Shown: positions 1,946 through 53,285, numbered from the stretch's first letter. The stretch: 64,000 bases of DNA from a virus (IMGVR_UViG_3300025120_010481:15204-79203); one strand, 5' to 3'. Numbers and translations: made by a program. Notes: generated from the sequence alone by a model not told the origin.

Positions 1946-2731
1946 TCATTGTATTCCCATTTCCTTCTTGATGTATTCTGCTACCTTTTTTCCGCGAACA
2001 CTTTCAGCGTATTCGTAGTATCTATCGTTGGTAATTTCTTCGTTGTTTATTTTGTTAATAATATTTTCTATCGAGGCAAGAGAAAACTCTTCGACTCTAG
2101 CTTCCTCCCATTGCTTTACGGTTCGATAAAACCAAAAGTCTGGCAAGTCGTAATTCATTAACGGTAAGCATCCAAATTCCATAGATTCAAAAAACCTAAA
2201 TGTTTCTGGACTTGCAGTCCCGTGAGGGCATATCGCAATTTTGGCATTGCTCATGATCTCGGAGTAGTCAAACTTTGAAAGACCGTTGTTAAATCCTTGG
2301 TAAAACCAGAAGAAGGACTTTAACGAACTGTTATCTAACTCATTCGCTAACTTGGGTATATCTAATCTATTATATGCTATCTGACCTAAAAATACCACAT
2401 CTAATTTTCTATCTTTTAAATTAGTTTTGCTTTGAACCTTTATGTCTTTAGATGGGCCGAGAGGTATAGGTCTCAGTTTTGAATTGTGCTGATAATCAGG
2501 GCAATATTGCTTAAATATCATTTTAACAGAAGGGTCTTTAACTTCTTCTGGTGTCCTATACTGCTCGTCAGCGTTCATCAGTATTATTTTGTCGCCCTCT
2601 ATTTCCGGCATCGGGTCTCCAAAGTTTTTTGCGATGACCGTATAAGGAGAGTCAGCTAGATTTTGCGATATTTCAGAAAACAGATATTTTTCAAAATTAT
2701 TTTCTGGGATTAAATCAATGTAATCACCCAT
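1946..2731 (-). CDS. Glycosyltransferase, exostosin/GT47-like
   Basis: YSEIMSNAKIAICPHGTASPETFRFFESMEFGCLP motif. Confidence 0.75.
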   Translation of the reverse strand: MGDYIDLIPENNFEKYLFSEISQNLADSPYTVIAKNFGDPMPEIEGDKIILMNADEQYRTPEEVKDPSVKMIFKQYCPDYQHNSKLRPIPLGPSKDIKVQSKTNLKDRKLDVVFLGQIAYNRLDIPKLANELDNSSLKSFFWFYQGFNNGLSKFDYSEIMSNAKIAICPHGTASPETFRFFESMEFGCLPLMNYDLPDFWFYRTVKQWEEARVEEFSLASIENIINKINNEEITNDRYYEYAESVRGKKVAEYIKKEMGIQ

Positions 2732-12532: not shown

Positions 12533-13343
12533 TGTTGAATTTCTCCCATGTGAGAAGACACTCTTCATTGCTTCTACTTGCGGCATCTCTAACCTTTTCG
12601 ACGAACGGTCTACTGTCAGAATATTCGTCGTTAAAAACCTTTGTTTTATTTCCGTTCAGAAACTTAAACAGGGGAGTGTGAAACAACATGCCATCTGACT
12701 CGCTGTAAGGCTCAACAAGCGACAATCTTTTAAGTTCTATGTTTACCCGATTATGAACCCTTTTGATCAAGTCTCTAGCTACAGGCTCGCCAGAAGTAGT
12801 CACGTAAAGCCATCCGTTTTTAGCATGAGTAAATGCTTCGTCCACAACTCTATCAACATTTACAAACTTAGCTTCCATTTGCACTATGTGAAACTCTGTA
12901 ATGTCCCAAGTAAAATTGGATGTTAGAACGCCAAAAATTTCTTCGTTGTATTCAACTCTGTCGTTAATTACGGCGATATATCTTGCTGGCACTTCTTCTT
13001 GATTTGCGATATCTTGAACTGTTTTTTCTAAGTCCACAATGGGATTTTCGGATTCTGCATTAAACTTTAGAAAAAATCCAACGCGAGGATGTATTTCTTC
13101 TAGTACGTGAGATTTAGGGTCTTGATAGTCATCTATTTCATCTAGCCAGTCTTGCGGCCTATAGGTTGTGCAAAATCTTTCTAGTTTGAACCAATCTTTT
13201 TTTTCTTGGATTCCTAGTTTTTCAGCCCTGTTTAGCTCACATCCCGCTTGAACTTCATTTTCATCTAGGACTGCAAATACGCAGCCATCGCAACTTGAGT
13301 GGACTTGTAATTCCTGAGTTGTTTTATTTTCTGGTTCGCTCAT
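12525..13343 (-). CDS. Hypothetical protein (N-terminal CxxC)
   Basis: 272 aa ORF, coupled to neighbours. Confidence 0.6.
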   Translation of the reverse strand: MSEPENKTTQELQVHSSCDGCVFAVLDENEVQAGCELNRAEKLGIQEKKDWFKLERFCTTYRPQDWLDEIDDYQDPKSHVLEEIHPRVGFFLKFNAESENPIVDLEKTVQDIANQEEVPARYIAVINDRVEYNEEIFGVLTSNFTWDITEFHIVQMEAKFVNVDRVVDEAFTHAKNGWLYVTTSGEPVARDLIKRVHNRVNIELKRLSLVEPYSESDGMLFHTPLFKFLNGNKTKVFNDEYSDSRPFVEKVRDAASRSNEECLLTWEKFNNE

Positions 13344-17893: not shown

Positions 17894-19522
17894 TCAAATT
17901 TGTGAAACTTTATTCAATATAAGGGAGTTACCATCTCTACTGGACACTGTTCCGTTTATAAGAACCGTGTTTCCTTCAGTCAGCAAGTTTTTGTTCTTGC
18001 TATAATCCTCTGGGAAGGCAGTAACATCTAAAGACCCACTGCTGTCTTCAACTGACAAAAACGCCATAATGCTTCCGGCATTTTTACCCTTTTTTGTTTC
18101 ATACTCTCTTACTGAGGCTATAGAAACAGCAATAGAAGTTTTACCAATTATAGTACTATTATGTACATCTTTGCACATATTTTTTGCTAAATTTGATTTT
18201 ATTGAACCATCTACCACACTGCAAGTTAAAGAGCATCCAATTATTCTATTTTCTAAGTTCGCTATAGTCCAAGCGTGATCCTCTGTCGAGTAAGGGGGGT
18301 TTTTCAAAGACTCGACTAAATCAAGTAATTCTGAAACCTTTTTGGGTTGAACGATTATCCTGCCCCCATCACATTCTTTTGCTATGTATTGATATTCTGA
18401 CGAATCTTTGATAGAAACGTATTTATATTCTAGTGCTAATGAAATCCAAGCGTGTAAATCATCAAACGCCCCAGAGTAATGTTTGTACAAATTAGCAATG
18501 TGCTTTTTGATTGATGCAGATAAAGAGTTCCACACCCCGTATTCATAAAGCATTTTATTTCTTTGCGTTTTATTGTTTTTGCCATTAAACGCACCAATTG
18601 AAATCAGTGACTCAATAGTTCTTTTGCCTAGCTTTTCACCTTGTTTAACCCCGCCAAACGTAAATAAACAGTCAAGCCAAGTAAAAGAAGGAATATCTTT
18701 TGTTTTACCTAGCTTTTCTATGACCTGCACATCTACCGCAGAAACATTTTTAGCGTTAGAAATACCAAAATAAATAACACTCTTATCCTTATCCATAGTA
18801 AAGTCAGGGAACAACCTTGAAAGCGAAGGGGGATAAACTTCAATACTGTGATTCTTAGCATCCATAACAAATTCTTTTACGTCATCGCTATCTTTTGCGT
18901 GATTTAAATAAACCTCAAAAAATTTCAACGGCCTATGAGCCTTGCAGTAAGCACTTTGGTATGTATTAACAGCGTAAGCAATGCCATGAGATTTATTAAA
19001 TGCGTATCTACTTGATTTTTCAATCCAAGAAAAAATTTCTTCAGCTATTTCTTCCGAGACAATGCCTTGCTCTCCAGCACCAGAGATAAACCTTTCTTTA
19101 ACTTCAAGCATCAACTTGGCTTTCTTTTTACCAATCGCTTTTCTTAGGTTGTCAGCTTCTTTCAAGTCGAAGCCAGATAAAACCTTGGCTATCATCATGG
19201 ACTGTTCTTGGTAAACCAAAACACCATAAGTCTCTGAAAGGGTAGACTCCAAGGACGGATGATGGTACTTAGAGGGTTCCTTGCCTGACTTTCTGTCAAC
19301 ATAGGTTTGAGTCATAGACTTGCCATCCATGATAGCCTTCAAGCATCCCGGTCTAATCAAGGAAATCAAAGCCGATAACTCTGTAATACTTCTAGGTTTA
19401 ACCTTTTTAGCCCAACTGGAACCAAGCTGACTTTCAAGTTGAAATACGCCCTTGGTTCTTCCTTCGCTGATTAAATCCCAAGTTAATTTGTCATCAAAAT
19501 CATTAATATTAAAATCGTTCAC
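17894..19522 (-). CDS. dnaE: DNA polymerase III alpha subunit, C-terminal half (fingers, HhH, OB)
   Basis: TKGVFQLES, SLIRPG, TYGVLVYQEQ, ADNLRKAIGKK, YAFNKSH..AY, MAFLSVEDSSG. Confidence 0.93.
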   Translation of the reverse strand: MNDFNINDFDDKLTWDLISEGRTKGVFQLESQLGSSWAKKVKPRSITELSALISLIRPGCLKAIMDGKSMTQTYVDRKSGKEPSKYHHPSLESTLSETYGVLVYQEQSMMIAKVLSGFDLKEADNLRKAIGKKKAKLMLEVKERFISGAGEQGIVSEEIAEEIFSWIEKSSRYAFNKSHGIAYAVNTYQSAYCKAHRPLKFFEVYLNHAKDSDDVKEFVMDAKNHSIEVYPPSLSRLFPDFTMDKDKSVIYFGISNAKNVSAVDVQVIEKLGKTKDIPSFTWLDCLFTFGGVKQGEKLGKRTIESLISIGAFNGKNNKTQRNKMLYEYGVWNSLSASIKKHIANLYKHYSGAFDDLHAWISLALEYKYVSIKDSSEYQYIAKECDGGRIIVQPKKVSELLDLVESLKNPPYSTEDHAWTIANLENRIIGCSLTCSVVDGSIKSNLAKNMCKDVHNSTIIGKTSIAVSIASVREYETKKGKNAGSIMAFLSVEDSSGSLDVTAFPEDYSKNKNLLTEGNTVLINGTVSSRDGNSLILNKVSQI

Positions 19523-19530
19523 GTTAACCT

Positions 19531-20232
19531 CTAAGTTATATCAAAATTTCCGTTAGCAAATGCGTTCTTGAATTGAACCTTATTGTTGTCAATAATATTT
19601 CTTTGGAGCTTTAAAAATCTAATTAGAATATTCGCAGTATCTTTTACGTCTTGCAACGCATCATGTGCGTTTTCGTTAGGCATACCAAAGTACTCTCTTA
19701 GATAATCCATGTTATACTTATTTACTTCGGCGTGATTTTCAAACCAGCAGTAAATATGCTGCATCAAGTCGATTTTGTGAATTGGGTGGAATATTTTTTG
19801 CTCCCCATTTTTATCGCTTGTTGGGCCGTACTCTTGACAAAGCCTGTCTACGATCTTCATATCGAACCCATTAATATTGTAACCCGCAGCTATTGGTGCA
19901 TACCAAGGAGTTTTCTTGAAGTTAAACTGATCGCAAAACTTAGCGAAGTTTTTCCACACAGTCTTTGGCATTGGCCCTTTAGCAAGACTAGCTCTAGTTC
20001 TTTTTGTTACTTCTAGAGCACCTTCCTCGATTGGGTCAAAACCAGCGGCAATAGCTTTATCATCATTAGTTATGCACCTCATGGTACTTTCGAAAATGCC
20101 GTTAGGCTGAATCTTGAGCTTTCTTGCATGGATAGCTACGGCAGCAATTTGAGTGGGTTGACACTTTTCTGCGTTTCTTCCTGTGGTCTCAAAGTCAAAA
20201 ACAATTATATCACGATAATTCATATTAGCCAC
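19531..20232 (-). CDS. DEDDh 3'-5' exonuclease (DnaQ/epsilon-like)
   Basis: VFDFETTG, AGYNINGFD, AHDALQDV. Confidence 0.9.
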   Translation of the reverse strand: MANMNYRDIIVFDFETTGRNAEKCQPTQIAAVAIHARKLKIQPNGIFESTMRCITNDDKAIAAGFDPIEEGALEVTKRTRASLAKGPMPKTVWKNFAKFCDQFNFKKTPWYAPIAAGYNINGFDMKIVDRLCQEYGPTSDKNGEQKIFHPIHKIDLMQHIYCWFENHAEVNKYNMDYLREYFGMPNENAHDALQDVKDTANILIRFLKLQRNIIDNNKVQFKNAFANGNFDIT

Positions 20233-20455
20233 CCTTTTTTGAAATTTTTATAAATAAATCTGTAGCATCACCTAAGTCTTGGAACAATTCGTAAACCTTT
20301 TCTTTTTCACACCAAACTTGGTATTTACCCTTGGGAGTGTAATTCCCCATTATAACATCCTCCAAGTTGCATATAGATGCACCCTTTCTATTGACAACGG
20401 AATACCCGTGATAAACAACAGACATAATGTCTTCTTTGCCGCTAATAACTTTCAT
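20225..20455 (-). CDS. Hypothetical protein
   Basis: 76 aa ORF coupled between dnaE-N and the exonuclease. Confidence 0.55.
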   Translation of the reverse strand: MKVISGKEDIMSVVYHGYSVVNRKGASICNLEDVIMGNYTPKGKYQVWCEKEKVYELFQDLGDATDLFIKISKKGG

Positions 20456-22076
20456 CGCAAATCTCCATAATTTTAGTTAAAACATTTAAACCTAGAATAT
20501 CAAACTTAACATGCCCTTGGCTTTCTAAATCTTGCATTTCAAATGCCGCCACTGGATCACCAGATTTATTATCAATTACCGGACATATATCACTCAGTTT
20601 GTTTTTTGATATAACGACACCACAAGCGTGGGTGCTTTTACTCTTGATCGCCCCCTCTAGCTTAATCGCTAAATCAAACTCGTGAGACAAACCACCTTGA
20701 AGTTCGTCATCGCTGTTAATAAAACACCAAGACTTTAAATTGTCTGGGTTGTTTTTTAAAGCCCACATAATAACTGAGCTTTCTCCAGAAGCAGAAATCT
20801 TGTCTGAAATTTCTTGAGTTTCTGGAATCTGATCTGTGATTTCATTCATCTCTGAGAAACCCACAGAGCCACACACACGCAGAGATTCTTTTAGTGCTGA
20901 CTTTCCCTGAAGTCTACCAAAAGTAATCACCTGTGCCACTTTATCTTCCCCAAACAGGCTCTTGATGTAATCAATAACTTCATCCCTGTGAGAAGGAGGA
21001 ACGTCCAAGTCAATATCTGGCAAGGAAATATTATCTTTGGTGTTTCTACCCTCGTTATAGAATCTTTCAAACAAAAGATCGTTCTTGATTGGGTCTACAT
21101 TAGTAATTCCTATAAGGTATGATACTAGCGAACCCGCAGCAGAACCCCTTCCGGGGCCAACAATCCAACCTCTTTCCCTAACGTATCTAACAATATCTTG
21201 AACGATTAAAAAATAACCTGACAGTTCAGCGTTAAATATAACACTCATTTCTGACTGTACTCTATCAAGATAAGCCCGCTTGATTTTTTCTGTGCTTAAA
21301 ACATCAGGAGTCAACTTAGATGCCCAGCCTTCTCTGCATAATTGTTTAAGGTAATCATCCTGAGACATTCCGTCTGGACATTTAAATTCTGGAAGCATGG
21401 GCTTTGCTGTGATTTCATAGTCTTCGCAGGATTCAACAATTTTAGATATTTTACTAAACTGATCTTCCTGTGTATTTGCCCCTAAGTAAAAATTACTAGA
21501 ATCAAAAAACCTTTGATTGTTAGACTCTTCCCATCTTTCCTTGTTGATTGATCTCATCTTTTTAAAGTTAGTTTTCATCCCAGAAAGAATCATAACTCTG
21601 TGAGCTTCCGCATCAGTTTCGTCAACATAGTATGTTCCAGTCTCTACGATTTCATGAAAGTTGCTTTTAAACATCTTACTTAAAACGTTTGACAGATTGT
21701 CCTTGGGTTTATCAGACTGACAGTCTCTAAAAACCACACACGCAATATTGTTTTTGGATGCCATAATCTTTAAGCTGTCTAGCTTTTTAAAATTTTCTGA
21801 TTGAAAATCTGAAGTAAACTGAATCAACTCAAAATAACCCTGCTTGTTTTTAGCAAACAAAGAGAAGTCATTGAAATCGCAACCAATTATTGGCTTGATT
21901 CCGTTGTCCTTGCAAGCCTTGTGAAAAGCTGGCACGCCCGACACGTTCTCGATATCGTTAATTGCACATGCTTGATAGCCATTTTCCTTGCATCTCTTTG
22001 CAATATTGTCGCATTGACAAAATCCTTTCTGGATGCTGTAGTCAGTTTTGACATTTAGTGGAGTATATTCGCTCAT
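20442..22076 (-). CDS. dnaE: DNA polymerase III alpha subunit, N-terminal half (PHP + palm/thumb)
   Basis: PHP-like N-terminus (GIKPIIG), YFLIVQD, GPGRGSAAGSLVSY, LLFERF, PDIDLD, STHACGVVI, VKFDILGL at the C-terminus. Confidence 0.93.
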   Translation of the reverse strand: MSEYTPLNVKTDYSIQKGFCQCDNIAKRCKENGYQACAINDIENVSGVPAFHKACKDNGIKPIIGCDFNDFSLFAKNKQGYFELIQFTSDFQSENFKKLDSLKIMASKNNIACVVFRDCQSDKPKDNLSNVLSKMFKSNFHEIVETGTYYVDETDAEAHRVMILSGMKTNFKKMRSINKERWEESNNQRFFDSSNFYLGANTQEDQFSKISKIVESCEDYEITAKPMLPEFKCPDGMSQDDYLKQLCREGWASKLTPDVLSTEKIKRAYLDRVQSEMSVIFNAELSGYFLIVQDIVRYVRERGWIVGPGRGSAAGSLVSYLIGITNVDPIKNDLLFERFYNEGRNTKDNISLPDIDLDVPPSHRDEVIDYIKSLFGEDKVAQVITFGRLQGKSALKESLRVCGSVGFSEMNEITDQIPETQEISDKISASGESSVIMWALKNNPDNLKSWCFINSDDELQGGLSHEFDLAIKLEGAIKSKSTHACGVVISKNKLSDICPVIDNKSGDPVAAFEMQDLESQGHVKFDILGLNVLTKIMEICDESY

Positions 22077-46471: not shown

Positions 46472-47686
46472 TTATACAAACAACTCTTTTATAATTTTTC
46501 CTGAGTTTGCTATCTTCATAGGTCGCCCACCGTTGCTTGTATAAGTGGTCTCCAACGAAATGCCAAGAGCATTACAAATCGACACCATTACATCTTCCGA
46601 AGAGTGGCTTTCTGTTTCTACTTTTGTTCCGTCTTCGTTTGTTGAACCTACAGATATACCACCATTCATACCAGCCCCACCCACAACCACACTCCAGCTT
46701 CTTGCCCAGTGGTCTCGTCCGGCGTTCTGGTTGATTTGTGGTGTTCTACTAAACTCTCCCATCCATATGATAGCCGTGTCGTCAAGCAGTCCTCGCTGCT
46801 CTAGGTCTTCTATTAACGCACTCATGCCTTGGTCTAGCATGGGTAACTTTGTGTCTTTTAATGTTGGAAAAATATTCTGATGGTTGTCCCAGCCGTTTAG
46901 CCCGACCTCGATAAATGGAACGCCAACCTCAACAAGCCTTCTAGCCATTAGACATCCCTTGCCAAAGCTGTTGTCCCCGTATCGTTCCTTAACGGAATCT
47001 GGCTCTACGTCCACCTTCATTGCGTCCATCTCACTACTGGTCAAAACATCAAATGTTTTTCGCAGTATCTTTTGATGTTCTTTAGCGAGAGACCCTCTAT
47101 TGTTTTTTATGAAGTTGTTTTCCATTAAATGTAGGGCTTGTGCCCTTTGACGGAATCTATCATCTATTTTTAAGTCTAGATTTCTAATTCTACCATCGCT
47201 GTTTACCACGAACGGAGAATATTCAGCACCTAAAAATCCACCTCCAGCACTTGGCCCATTAACTGACACAAACTGAGGTATCAAAAGGTCTTCTCTCTCT
47301 AGCTCTTTAGAAAGAATAGCTCCGTAACTTGGGTGAACCATATTTGGATTAGGCACATAGCCTGTGTGCATGTAGTAACGACCCCGCATGTGGTCAGCTT
47401 CACGGGTACTCATGCTTCGCACAATAGCCATGTTGTGCATCTGCTTTGCCATTAGCGGCATATGCTCACAAATTTCTACATCTCCGGTTGTACTTATGGG
47501 CTTGAATGGGCCACCAGTTGGTGCGTCTGGTTTTAAGTCCCATATGTCCATCGTTGACGGGCCACCTCCCATCCAGAGAAGTATGGCCGATTTGCCCTTT
47601 TTCTTTAATTCCTTCTCGTTAGCCTTGAGGGTTTGCGTTAAAGCGGCAAGCCCAGCTAGTGATGATAAAAACTGTCTTCTTTTCAT
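46472..47686 (-). CDS. DUF1501 family protein with Tat signal (abundant in Planctomycetes)
   Basis: MKRRQFL Tat motif, LWMGGGPS.MD.WDLKP, GCLMARRLVE.GV.F, GWDNH, GEFSRTP.IN..GRDHW. Confidence 0.9.
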   Translation of the reverse strand: MKRRQFLSSLAGLAALTQTLKANEKELKKKGKSAILLWMGGGPSTMDIWDLKPDAPTGGPFKPISTTGDVEICEHMPLMAKQMHNMAIVRSMSTREADHMRGRYYMHTGYVPNPNMVHPSYGAILSKELEREDLLIPQFVSVNGPSAGGGFLGAEYSPFVVNSDGRIRNLDLKIDDRFRQRAQALHLMENNFIKNNRGSLAKEHQKILRKTFDVLTSSEMDAMKVDVEPDSVKERYGDNSFGKGCLMARRLVEVGVPFIEVGLNGWDNHQNIFPTLKDTKLPMLDQGMSALIEDLEQRGLLDDTAIIWMGEFSRTPQINQNAGRDHWARSWSVVVGGAGMNGGISVGSTNEDGTKVETESHSSEDVMVSICNALGISLETTYTSNGGRPMKIANSGKIIKELFV

Positions 47687-47704
47687 TTTTCTTGTATCCT
47701 TATC
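47629..47704. repeat. 76-bp imperfect direct repeat, copy 1 (5' end + RBS region of the DUF1501 gene)
   Basis: 70/76 identical to 48378-48453 by manual alignment. Confidence 0.9.
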
Positions 47705-47739
47705 CTGAATATTTTTGCTGTTGTTTTACTTTTACCGTG

Positions 47740-48435
47740 TTACTTGCGATTGTCAGGGTAGCGAAGAAACATGACTAAATCGTCACCGCACTCTGAAAGA
47801 GTAAGTTCACTGACTTCATTCTTTCCCGGTTTCATGTTCGCGATGTCATCGGGAGTTTCAATCTCCCCATTTGGCCCCGCTGAAACCACGCGAATGAATT
47901 TGGATTCTGTTTGATTGATGATTCCGTCTTGGTCAAAATCGACCTGTAACTCAAGTTCATTTCCCCAACCATCCACGATTGTTGGTTCACCAGTTTCGTT
48001 TCGCCCCGTCGCACGCACATAGGGGCCATGCCAGCCAATTTTGTTGACCGGATCGTAGTTTTTAAGTTCGGGGGCGGCTTCTTCCATGTGGGCTGGTGCA
48101 TCCTCTTTGAGGAGATCGTTGATTTCTCTTGGAAGAGCATTTGTCTTGTGTGACAGTGACTCAATAACACCGTCTTCCCCCGCCATCGCTTCACGAACGG
48201 TATTCAGCGTAGCCTGCGTAGCAATTTCGACAGGGCTGTTGGACTCACCAGAAGGCGAGGTGATATCAATATTGTTAAACGTGGTGAATATGAGGGCGGT
48301 CGCGATTAAAATCACCAATACGACTAATAGTTCGAGGAGCGTCAAACCACGTTGATTTAAGTGATGACGCGATCCACGGGTTTGAGTTAAAGCAGCAAGT
48401 CCAGATAGCGATGATAAAAACTGTCTTCTTTTCAT
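47740..48435 (-). CDS. Chimeric protein: duplicated DUF1501 Tat leader fused to a prepilin-type N-terminal cleavage/methylation (pseudopilin GspG-like) protein
   Basis: MKRRQFLSSLSGLAALTQT + QRG|LTLLELLVVLVIL, GWHGPY, DGWGN, VVSAGPNG; GC higher than the flanks. Confidence 0.8.
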   Translation of the reverse strand: MKRRQFLSSLSGLAALTQTRGSRHHLNQRGLTLLELLVVLVILIATALIFTTFNNIDITSPSGESNSPVEIATQATLNTVREAMAGEDGVIESLSHKTNALPREINDLLKEDAPAHMEEAAPELKNYDPVNKIGWHGPYVRATGRNETGEPTIVDGWGNELELQVDFDQDGIINQTESKFIRVVSAGPNGEIETPDDIANMKPGKNEVSELTLSECGDDLVMFLRYPDNRK

Positions 48436-48453
48436 TTTTCGTGTATCCTTATC
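48378..48453. repeat. 76-bp imperfect direct repeat, copy 2
   Basis: See 47629-47704. Confidence 0.9.
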
Positions 48454-48493
48454 TTTATATTCCTGCTTATTTTTTATTTTGTAAATCCGTTAG

Positions 48494-48510
48494 CGTGTCA
48501 AACTGACACA
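48494..48510 (-). promoter_or_regulatory. Candidate bacterial SECIS hairpin
   Basis: UGUGUCA-GUU-UGACACG begins 13 nt after the in-frame UGA at 48526-48524. Confidence 0.45.
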
Positions 48511-48511
48511 A

Positions 48512-49780
48512 TTACCAAGCTCGTCACGACCAATATCTGGCTTTCCATTTAGGCCCCGGAGTTTCGCATTTATGCCTAGCTCTAAATGACTTTCTCCTAG
48601 CTGGATCAGACTTCTTGATTCTCATATTTGGATCGCCAAAGTTAACCTTTACTACGTTACCCTTTTCGTTTTTAACATAAACAGATCGTTTTTTCGGGCC
48701 ATCTGGTGTTAGAAACGGTTTCCCTAGTTTAACTTTTCTACCTTGATATTCTGCTGCTCTTACGGGAACCAAGTTCCTGCCATCCTTTGTGTAAATACCT
48801 TTCCTTTCAAATTCATAAATTTGTCCGGTTTTAAGGTCTTTGTACTTGTACCCAGCCTTGTCTTTACGTAAAAGCTCAAAGTCTTCCTGAGTAATTTTAC
48901 CATCTTTATTTTTGTCTAGAGCTTTCTTCTGCTTGTCTGACATTTTAGCTTTAGATTTTCTAGGATGCCCCTTTGGTAAAAGATCGTTGTCTTGCGTATA
49001 AGCTGCGTTCTTTGGTCTGCCAGTTCTAAGCAGATGAATGAAAGCGTTTACTCTAGCCATAGCCCACCCATCTCTAGACATCTTGGGGGCGTGACTTGTT
49101 GAAAATGCTCCAGCACCTCGACGGTATACGGCTTTGAGCATACCGAGAGTCGCTTTTGATCCCTTGTCCTTGTCGTTATGTTCCTTTGCCTTTTTGGATA
49201 GTCTTTCAGTAGTGTTCTTACTGAAGGTGATTTTACCGCTAGGATTTTTTGCACTGTCTGGCTTGTTCTTTTTCGAGCCTTTTTTCTGGTCTTTTTTTGG
49301 AGCGGGGGTTCTTCTTGGATCACTAGGCTTTGCTTCTGCCTCAAAGAAATCTTTAACAGAATCATATTCTTGATTTTGGGCACGTTTCAATTGGTCTTTA
49401 GTTGGCCTGCCTTCTTTGACTGTCTTAGCAGGCTTATAATCGTCGCCCTCTCTTTGCTTTTTTCGTCTGATGTTTTCCCAAAGTCCCGGCTTTGCCACAG
49501 AAATATCCCATTCTTCTGTTTCTTCTCCCCAATCTTCATACTCTTCTTCGGACGGAACGTAAAAGTTGTCTTCGTTGATCGCCTCTGTGTAGCCATCGTG
49601 AATAACGTCATGGGCAAAAGCAGCAGAGCTTAGAGTTTCCAAGCCTTCTAACGCCTTGGACATGCAGACCGCCATTCTTTGGGAGTTGTCTTTAAACTCT
49701 TGAATTGACTTTTCGTCAGACATACATCTAGACAAAAAGTTTTCCCTTGATTCTCCGTCTTTTTTTGATGGAAGTGGCAT
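48512..49780 (-). CDS. Multidomain basic phage protein (DUF5824-like, EF-hand, C-terminal RARHxC..RYWS(C) domain); UGA at 48524-48526 possibly read as Sec
   Basis: LKAVYRRGAGAF..WAMARVNAF; EF-hand DKNKDGKITQED; KVNFGDPNM..RKSFRARHKC..KARYWS-UGA-RAW-UAA. Confidence 0.7.
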
Positions 49781-52880: not shown

Positions 52881-52924
52881 TTTAAAAAAATTATTTCCGA
52901 TACAACACGGAATTTGAAATCATA

Positions 52925-52948
52925 AAAGTCCGTTTTTTACAGAAACGG
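52925..52948 (-). terminator. Terminator after tmRNA coding piece
   Basis: CCGUUU..AAACGG stem followed by ACUUUU. Confidence 0.55.
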
Positions 52949-52959
52949 TTTGCATAAAA

Positions 52960-53200
52960 CTGGCTATGTTGGATGATAAGGTATAGCACCTCAGACAGCC
53001 TACGCTGCCATTGCGAAACTTGCGTTTGCAAATAACATTTTAGTCTGATTTTTAGAGAGCCATCAGACCAACTCTCTGTTGCGGTCATTGTTTCTTTTTG
53101 TCAGTCGATTCCATTACGTCCCCTTGATTTGGCAAGTGGAGACGGCGGGATTCGAACCCGCGTCCTGCACAAACTTCTGCAATAACGTCTACAACAATAT
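52960..53200 (-). ncRNA. ssrA: Circularly permuted two-piece tmRNA: acceptor piece ~53200-53137, 13-nt intervening segment, coding piece 53123-~52960; tag (A)ANASFAMAA
   Basis: Acceptor piece ends GACGCGGG-TTCGAAT-CCCGC-CGTCTCC-A; coding piece starts GGGGACG-TAATGGAATCGAC; 7-bp acceptor stem with G3:U70; PK1 GAGAG/CTCTC + GTCTGAT/ATCAGAC; tag at 53029-53000. Confidence 0.92.
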
Positions 53201-53212
53201 CCCCGAAGGGAG

Positions 53213-53285
53213 AGCCGCCTGTGGGAGTCGAACCTACAACCTGAGACTTACAAAATCCCTGCTCTGCCAATTGAGCTAAAGCGGC
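53213..53285 (-). tRNA. tRNA-Thr(UGU)
   Basis: GCCGCTT/AGGCGGC acceptor, GCTC/GAGC D-stem, loop TT-TGT-AA, TTCGACT T-loop; CCA not encoded. Confidence 0.93.

Follow-up and report, generated by a model that had tools for sequence, protein, structure and literature searches.

In bacterial selenoprotein genes, a UGA codon is read as selenocysteine (Sec) when a small downstream hairpin, the selenocysteine insertion sequence (SECIS), recruits SelB.GTP.Sec-tRNA(Sec). The bacterial consensus (bSECIS) has an apical loop of 3-9 nt whose first or second nucleotide is a G, usually with G or U next, a stem 4-16 bp long, a UGA-to-loop distance of 16-37 nt and a minimum free energy (MFE) of <=-7.5 kcal/mol (PMC13188914). 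The element normally lies in the translated region, and one placed just past the stop codon works in E. coli if Sec is near the C-terminus (2024 review, PMC11431864). No phage selenoprotein was described in the literature searched: a 2026 review of the prokaryotic selenoproteome makes no mention of phages or viruses (PMC13188914), a marine trace-element survey met viral members of the known selenoprotein families rarely or not at all (PMC9402790), and tRNA-Sec genes are reported in huge phages with no selenoprotein named (PMC10747093). Here, we analyse a gene of an uncultured marine phage on the minus strand of IMGVR_UViG_3300025120_010481:15204-79203 (64,000 nt, hereafter the window; the source IMG/VR virus record is 79 kb, with a completeness estimate of 51%), in which an in-frame UGA (48524-48526) stands opposite an invariant Cys of the protein family and is followed by a SECIS-like hairpin. 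We put at roughly 0.7 the probability that this UGA is the selenocysteine codon of a phage-encoded selenoprotein, the interpretation offered by a first-pass annotation of the sequence and supported here by comparison with homologues. With a little less assurance, we favour the wider view that a phage-specific family has twice turned an invariant C-terminal Cys into Sec, each time evolving its own SelB-type hairpin, that the element of the window lineage, lying behind the stop, is a natural SECIS of bacterial type in a 3' untranslated region, and that these phages, whose hosts are probably marine Planctomycetota, need the selenium metabolism of the host to make one of their proteins.

Results

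The open reading frame (ORF) that a gene caller would report has 418 codons; its product ends ...FRARHKCETPGPKWKARYWS, the last sense codons before the TGA being AAA GCC AGA TAT TGG TCG (KARYWS). The features of the locus are listed below, group A being the lineage of the window and Cys forms the homologues with Cys at the UGA position.

48527..49780, minus strand: codons 1-418, to Ser418, the gene-caller ORF end; the nearest clusters are phage and metagenome proteins of 335-506 aa
48986..49195, minus strand: DUF5824-like middle region, residues 196-265 (Pfam PF19141, E 2.6e-5)
48515..48778, minus strand: C-terminal domain, residues 335-422 if read via the UGA, with FRxRHxC and KARYWS[C/U]xxW invariant (phrog_7595, E 3e-9; 75-sequence alignment; AlphaFold2)
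48524..48526, minus strand: in-frame UGA, proposed Sec419, opposite the invariant Cys; invariant in 15 distinct group A sequences
48515..48523, minus strand: CGA GCT TGG (Arg-Ala-Trp), in frame beyond the TGA and matching the CRAW end of Cys forms; TGG invariant in group A
48512..48514, minus strand: UAA, proposed true stop, invariant in group A
48494..48510, minus strand: SECIS-like hairpin UGUGUCA-GUU-UGACACG, loop 48501-48503, wholly 3' of the UAA; fits the bSECIS consensus (PMC13188914)

A single T after the TAA separates this stop from the hairpin, which has seven pairs (the outermost U.G) and lies within all four consensus bounds (loop GUU, 7-bp stem, 20 nt from UGA to loop, MFE -8.3 kcal/mol). 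The first-pass annotation had described an ORF ending KARYWS-UGA with a frame that goes on as RAW-stop, a hairpin 13 nt past the UGA with a GU-starting loop about 20 nt past it, and normal use of UGA as a stop elsewhere with no global recoding. The frame is confirmed base by base (48512-48526), and the distances measure 13 and 20 nt. TGA is indeed an ordinary stop in the window, where it ends 27 of the 86 mechanically called ORFs of at least 100 aa; just one of these 27, the gene described here, has a SECIS-type hairpin after it.

Relatives at E <=0.001 make up 7860 of 8000 scored candidates from phage and marine metagenome data. The product ends in RYWSCxxW, or in that motif plus a short extension, in 117 of the 120 best protein clusters, which bears out the ending that the earlier reader had given for the family; the remaining three clusters end RYWS, one of them being the window's own protein and two its relatives, which share 88% and 81% identity with it. 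The alignment of homologues then suggested places a Cys at the UGA position and keeps the terminal W: over 75 sequences of the C-terminal domain, Cys85 (opposite the UGA), Trp88 and the upstream F-R-x-R-H-x-C are invariant, with Cys85 kept in all 74 Cys-form sequences. None of the 120 clusters is cut off at any other tail codon, though the W, Y, K and R codons could likewise become stops by a single change. Among viral and metagenome contigs scanned by pattern, no homologue has TAA or TAG at the Cys codon, and scans without the Trp requirement found no true TGA homologue that had lost xxW. Homologous contigs are cited below by L numbers. In one of them, L008 (a viral contig, 12815-12844, minus strand), the Cys/Sec codon is TGG (Trp), giving KARYWS-W-RKW-stop, and there is no hairpin; it may descend from a UGA form, or be non-functional. 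RYWSCxxW is internal in the viral contigs L103, L112, L113, L123, L062, L060 and L070, where tens to hundreds more residues come after the domain, so the motif is not an obligatory C-terminus.

In all, 26 contigs have TGA in place of the Cys codon, namely the window and 25 further true homologues from many marine samples that the pattern scans of viral and metagenome contigs brought up; a scan of genome contigs returned a false positive alone. Sorted by a tree of the last 100 residues, these UGA forms fall into group A, group B and the single contig L147, and groups A and B are separate clades, each adjoining Cys forms. By this tree the UGA arose in two independent lineages, and the search for other phages with a UGA and hairpin at the same site, proposed with the original interpretation, has in this way been answered.

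Group A, with a long multi-domain protein, comprises 20 contigs and the window, with 11 distinct downstream sequences and 73-98% protein identity to the window. Of the third positions in the 50 codons that precede the UGA, 45 are variable, while TGA CGA GCT TGG TAA shows just one Arg-to-Leu and one synonymous GCT-to-GCA change; the 2-3 nt from TAA to hairpin vary freely, and everything 3' of the hairpin differs between sub-lineages. Group B comprises four contigs (three distinct sequences) encoding single-domain proteins of ~97 aa on other phage contigs. Its frame runs on past the UGA for 13-14 codons, reading RMWAGQKVSDILK/R-stop and RLWSGRKVSDMIDG-stop, and these residues are homologous to Cys-form tails such as CRMWSAKNVSDIL. 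The Arg codon after the UGA is AGG in one group B sub-lineage, CGT in another and CGA in group A, and its retention via different codons within group B is as expected from translation past the UGA. Judged from the alignments, the protein is conserved on both sides of the UGA, a conservation limited in the window lineage to three residues beyond it.

The third kind of UGA form, L147 (a metagenome contig, 2375-2404, minus strand), has the TGA and no hairpin, sits at zero branch length from a Cys form and is nearly identical to L019. We read it as a probable nonsense mutation of the ordinary kind, or an error, and use it as a negative control within the data.

The hairpins of groups A and B are alike in position, starting 12-13 nt past the UGA with the loop (GUU or GGU) 18-20 nt past it, and differ in stem sequence:

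Group A, most members: GTGTCA-GTT-TGACAC (the window has an extra outer U.G pair)
L155: GCGTCA-GTT-TGACGC (U-A to C-G)
L146 and L149: GTATC-AGTT-GATAC (G-C to A-U, plus a 1-nt deletion)
L165, L167 and L169: variant hairpin with one C.A mismatch
Group B: GTCAGAA-GGT-TTCTGAC (stem unrelated to that of group A)
L180 (group B): GTCGGAA-GGT-TTCTGAC (A-U to G.U)

In the group A alignment, both-sided changes occur in two of the six core pairs and 98.5% of cells are paired. The stem of group B is formed by the G-Q/R-K codons pairing with those of a conserved V-S-D; in Cys forms the residues at the G-Q/R-K positions vary and the stem is missing. A strict test applied at the same site (contiguous stem >=5 bp, hairpin energy <=-5) was passed by 20 of the 26 UGA forms and by none of 116 Cys forms (1/116 at -4). 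Five further UGA forms bear variant hairpins, which leaves L147 as the sole UGA form without one. Close relatives with TGY and the same hairpin, which at first pass had been named as grounds for rejecting a selenoprotein, did not appear, and none of the Cys forms nearest to group A (L039, L053, L117, L017, L029 and others) passes. With a background of ~0-5% for such a hairpin at this position, it is improbable (~1e-3 or less) that chance alone would bring UGA and hairpin together twice at an equal offset. The comparison of UGA with Cys forms carries the case, and folding energy does not.

Two further observations concern these structures. In L148, L152, L158, L162 and L177 (metagenome loci from several group A sub-lineages), a lower stem (TAAT/ATTA, one C bulged) lengthens the core hairpin and brings it to -11 to -14 kcal/mol; the UAA stop is itself part of this lower stem. 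A hairpin at the KSVTD codons of long-tailed Cys forms was considered as a SECIS remnant and rejected, as its third positions pair in 5/8 (chance level) and its loops are without G.

Within the protein, PF19141 (DUF5824) scores 24.8 bits on residues 196-265 against a cut-off of 25, and is precomputed on most homologues; literature searches on DUF5824 gave nothing relevant. The C-terminal 88 residues are those matched by phrog_7595, in a domain found both alone and within longer proteins. AlphaFold2 models it with a mean pLDDT (predicted local distance difference test) of 84 as four strands and two helices; in this model the RHxC motif comes after helix 1, and helix 2, the last, holds the Cys/Sec position. 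Foldseek against the PDB and a wide VIA-align search with the domain model found no resembling solved structure (best Z 2.8, E 0.43). DUF5754 (PF19058) has no match in the window's domain, matches 40 of the 75 relatives weakly (best E 1.3e-4) and is present on 25% of members of one ESM Atlas cluster; the nearest ESM Atlas clusters are virus-only hypothetical proteins. A redox or metal-binding centre (selenol/thiol) beside the invariant His-x-Cys would be the likeliest role of the Cys/Sec site, a proposal whose sole basis is the invariance of the His, the Cys and the Cys/Sec.

The gene neighbours are clearly those of a phage, with a split DnaE-type polymerase, a DnaB-like helicase, a UvsX-like recombinase and a ribonucleotide reductase. 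The DnaE-type polymerase (17894-22076, minus strand) is in two ORFs (17894-19522 and 20442-22076) matching consecutive parts of phrog_405, with a 233-aa ORF (19531-20232) between them. No close isolate phage was found, the polymerase being ~30% identical to its best matches. ARAGORN predicts a phage-borne tmRNA (asterisk-flagged; 52909-53227, minus strand) with the tag peptide ANASFAMAA, beside tRNA-Thr and tRNA-Asn. Just downstream of the hairpin, in the region 47629-48487, is a pilin-like gene (47740-48435) whose closest cellular homologues (75-80% identity) are on megabase contigs that bear the names Planctomycetota, Mariniblastus and Pirellulaceae; this points to a marine Planctomycetota host. 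It starts with the same MKRRQFLSSL..TQT leader as a DUF1501 gene (46472-47686), DUF1501 being a family expanded in Planctomycetota. The hairpin of the relative L002 has a different gene right behind it, which marks the DUF1501/pilin block as an insert specific to a lineage. Complete Sec gene sets are present in some marine Planctomycetes (P1, Rhodopirellula P2, Gemmata and Isosphaera; PMC4807772), and a Sec-competent host is plausible.

Discussion

Standard bacterial Sec decoding by the host's SelB and tRNA-Sec is the most economical reading of this locus. With the UGA in the A site, the 17-nt hairpin 13 nt downstream would sit at the ribosome's mRNA entrance and recruit SelB.GTP.Sec-tRNA(Sec) of the host; Sec would be inserted, Arg-Ala-Trp read, and translation terminated at the UAA. 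The predicted product has 422 residues and ends ...KARYWS-U-RAW. Under a shortage of SelB or selenium, termination by release factor 2 would leave a product of 418 residues, without the last four.

Several results weigh against Sec decoding. Taken singly, the hairpins are small and fold in an ordinary way: the core is worth -5 to -6.6 kcal/mol, z-scores for single sequences run from -0.25 to -2.2, and for the window's 43 nt (MFE -8.3, z -0.56) 49 of 200 shuffles fold as well. Rfam gave no match up to E 10 in 48380-48640, in a search that so short a hairpin may escape. Compensatory support inside group A amounts to two single-sequence events and one mismatch variant, and the combination of UGA and hairpin represents two independent evolutionary events only. 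The window lineage has just three codons past the UGA, a tail whose loss might be tolerated. On the host side, the Sec trait is patchy in Planctomycetota (4 of ~20 genomes; PMC4807772), and neither the phage record nor three related ones yielded a tRNA-Sec or SelB (wing domain), each of these records being a fragment (14-51% complete).

The tolerance of a shorter tail is the core of the strongest rival, in which the Cys codon became a true stop, the protein works minus four residues, and the hairpin has nothing to do with the UGA, being a 3' element of another kind (a terminator, say, or a stem that stabilises the mRNA). We consider this unlikely. TGY needs one change to become TGA, mutations of this sort do happen (L147), and only four residues are lost in group A, but those four include the family-invariant Cys and Trp, and the tail is truncated at no other codon across the 120 clusters. 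Nor would a dead tail be expected to keep RAW-TAA intact among varying third positions and a varying spacer, or, in group B, to retain its homologous in-frame codons. Hairpins are common past gene ends (the strict test is passed by 4 of the 86 ORF ends in the window, and by 3 of the 59 that are TAA or TAG), and the energy of this one is ordinary; against an unrelated element stand the absence of any T-run 3' of the window hairpin, its confinement to UGA forms when the nearest Cys forms have none, and a UGA-to-loop distance that is equal in both lineages.

Slightly less probable again is programmed near-cognate read-through without selenium, in which the hairpin would help tRNA-Trp or tRNA-Cys at the UGA, and truncated and full-length protein would be made side by side. 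Among stop codons UGA leaks most, downstream structures boost read-through in some viruses, L008 has a Trp codon at this very position, and Sec and another inserted residue look the same in sequence alone. However, an invariant Cys at the position makes a classic Sec/Cys pair, Trp in its place is unlikely to preserve function, and a SelB-type loop (G then U or G) with matching spacing recurs in two lineages with unrelated stems. An artefact or a global recoding of UGA is effectively excluded. Single metagenomic assemblies can hold errors, and some phages recode stop codons; but the TGA, far from being the private mutation or sequencing error against which the first-pass annotation had cautioned, is carried by 26 contigs from many samples and studies. 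Contigs of four further runs (one an RNA library) also span the UGA and hairpin and show no difference there among the matches listed, contigs being apt to drop rare variants. Global recoding is contradicted by the ordinary TGA stops of the window.

If Sec decoding is correct, these phages use their host's rarest translational recoding, and their fitness is tied both to the selenium available and to a Sec trait that is patchy among hosts. In a very large domain family confined to phages, the invariant Cys would then probably be redox-active or metal-binding, as Sec substitutions are typical of such sites, which would be a first hint of function. The family would also offer a natural bacterial SECIS acting from behind a stop, and would be a clear instance of one family acquiring a SECIS twice. 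Since gene callers truncate such genes, phage selenoproteins would be missed by, and invisible in, current annotation.

Comparison with known systems

The locus most closely resembles bacterial selenoprotein genes, with E. coli fdhF as prototype (PMC13188914), in having a UGA at a Cys site, a small hairpin 12-13 nt downstream, an apical loop of G then U/G at 18-20 nt from the UGA and an MFE of ~-8 kcal/mol. It differs from them in being a phage gene of a family without known function, with a short stem of 6-7 bp and a use of SelB that is predicted. In layout, the window gene is like engineered E. coli proteins with C-terminal Sec (e.g. thioredoxin reductase with a minimal fdhF SECIS after the stop; PMC11431864), where a UGA, a few codons, a stop and a hairpin at SelB-compatible distance follow one another; that arrangement is man-made, whereas the one in group A is apparently natural and kept across 73-98% identity. 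Group A would be a natural case of a SECIS behind the stop, and group B would have the usual layout within the ORF. Selenoproteins of eukaryotic viruses, such as the poxvirus glutathione peroxidase homologues (see the review PMC6769590), are alike in that the virus leans on host Sec machinery for a UGA of its own. Those are captured host enzymes with a eukaryotic SECIS in the 3' untranslated region, while here the element is of bacterial type, the family is phage-specific and Sec has seemingly arisen from Cys twice. What would be new in this locus, as read from its sequence, is that a known recoding machinery would serve a phage gene, of a protein family new to it and with a SECIS behind the stop codon.
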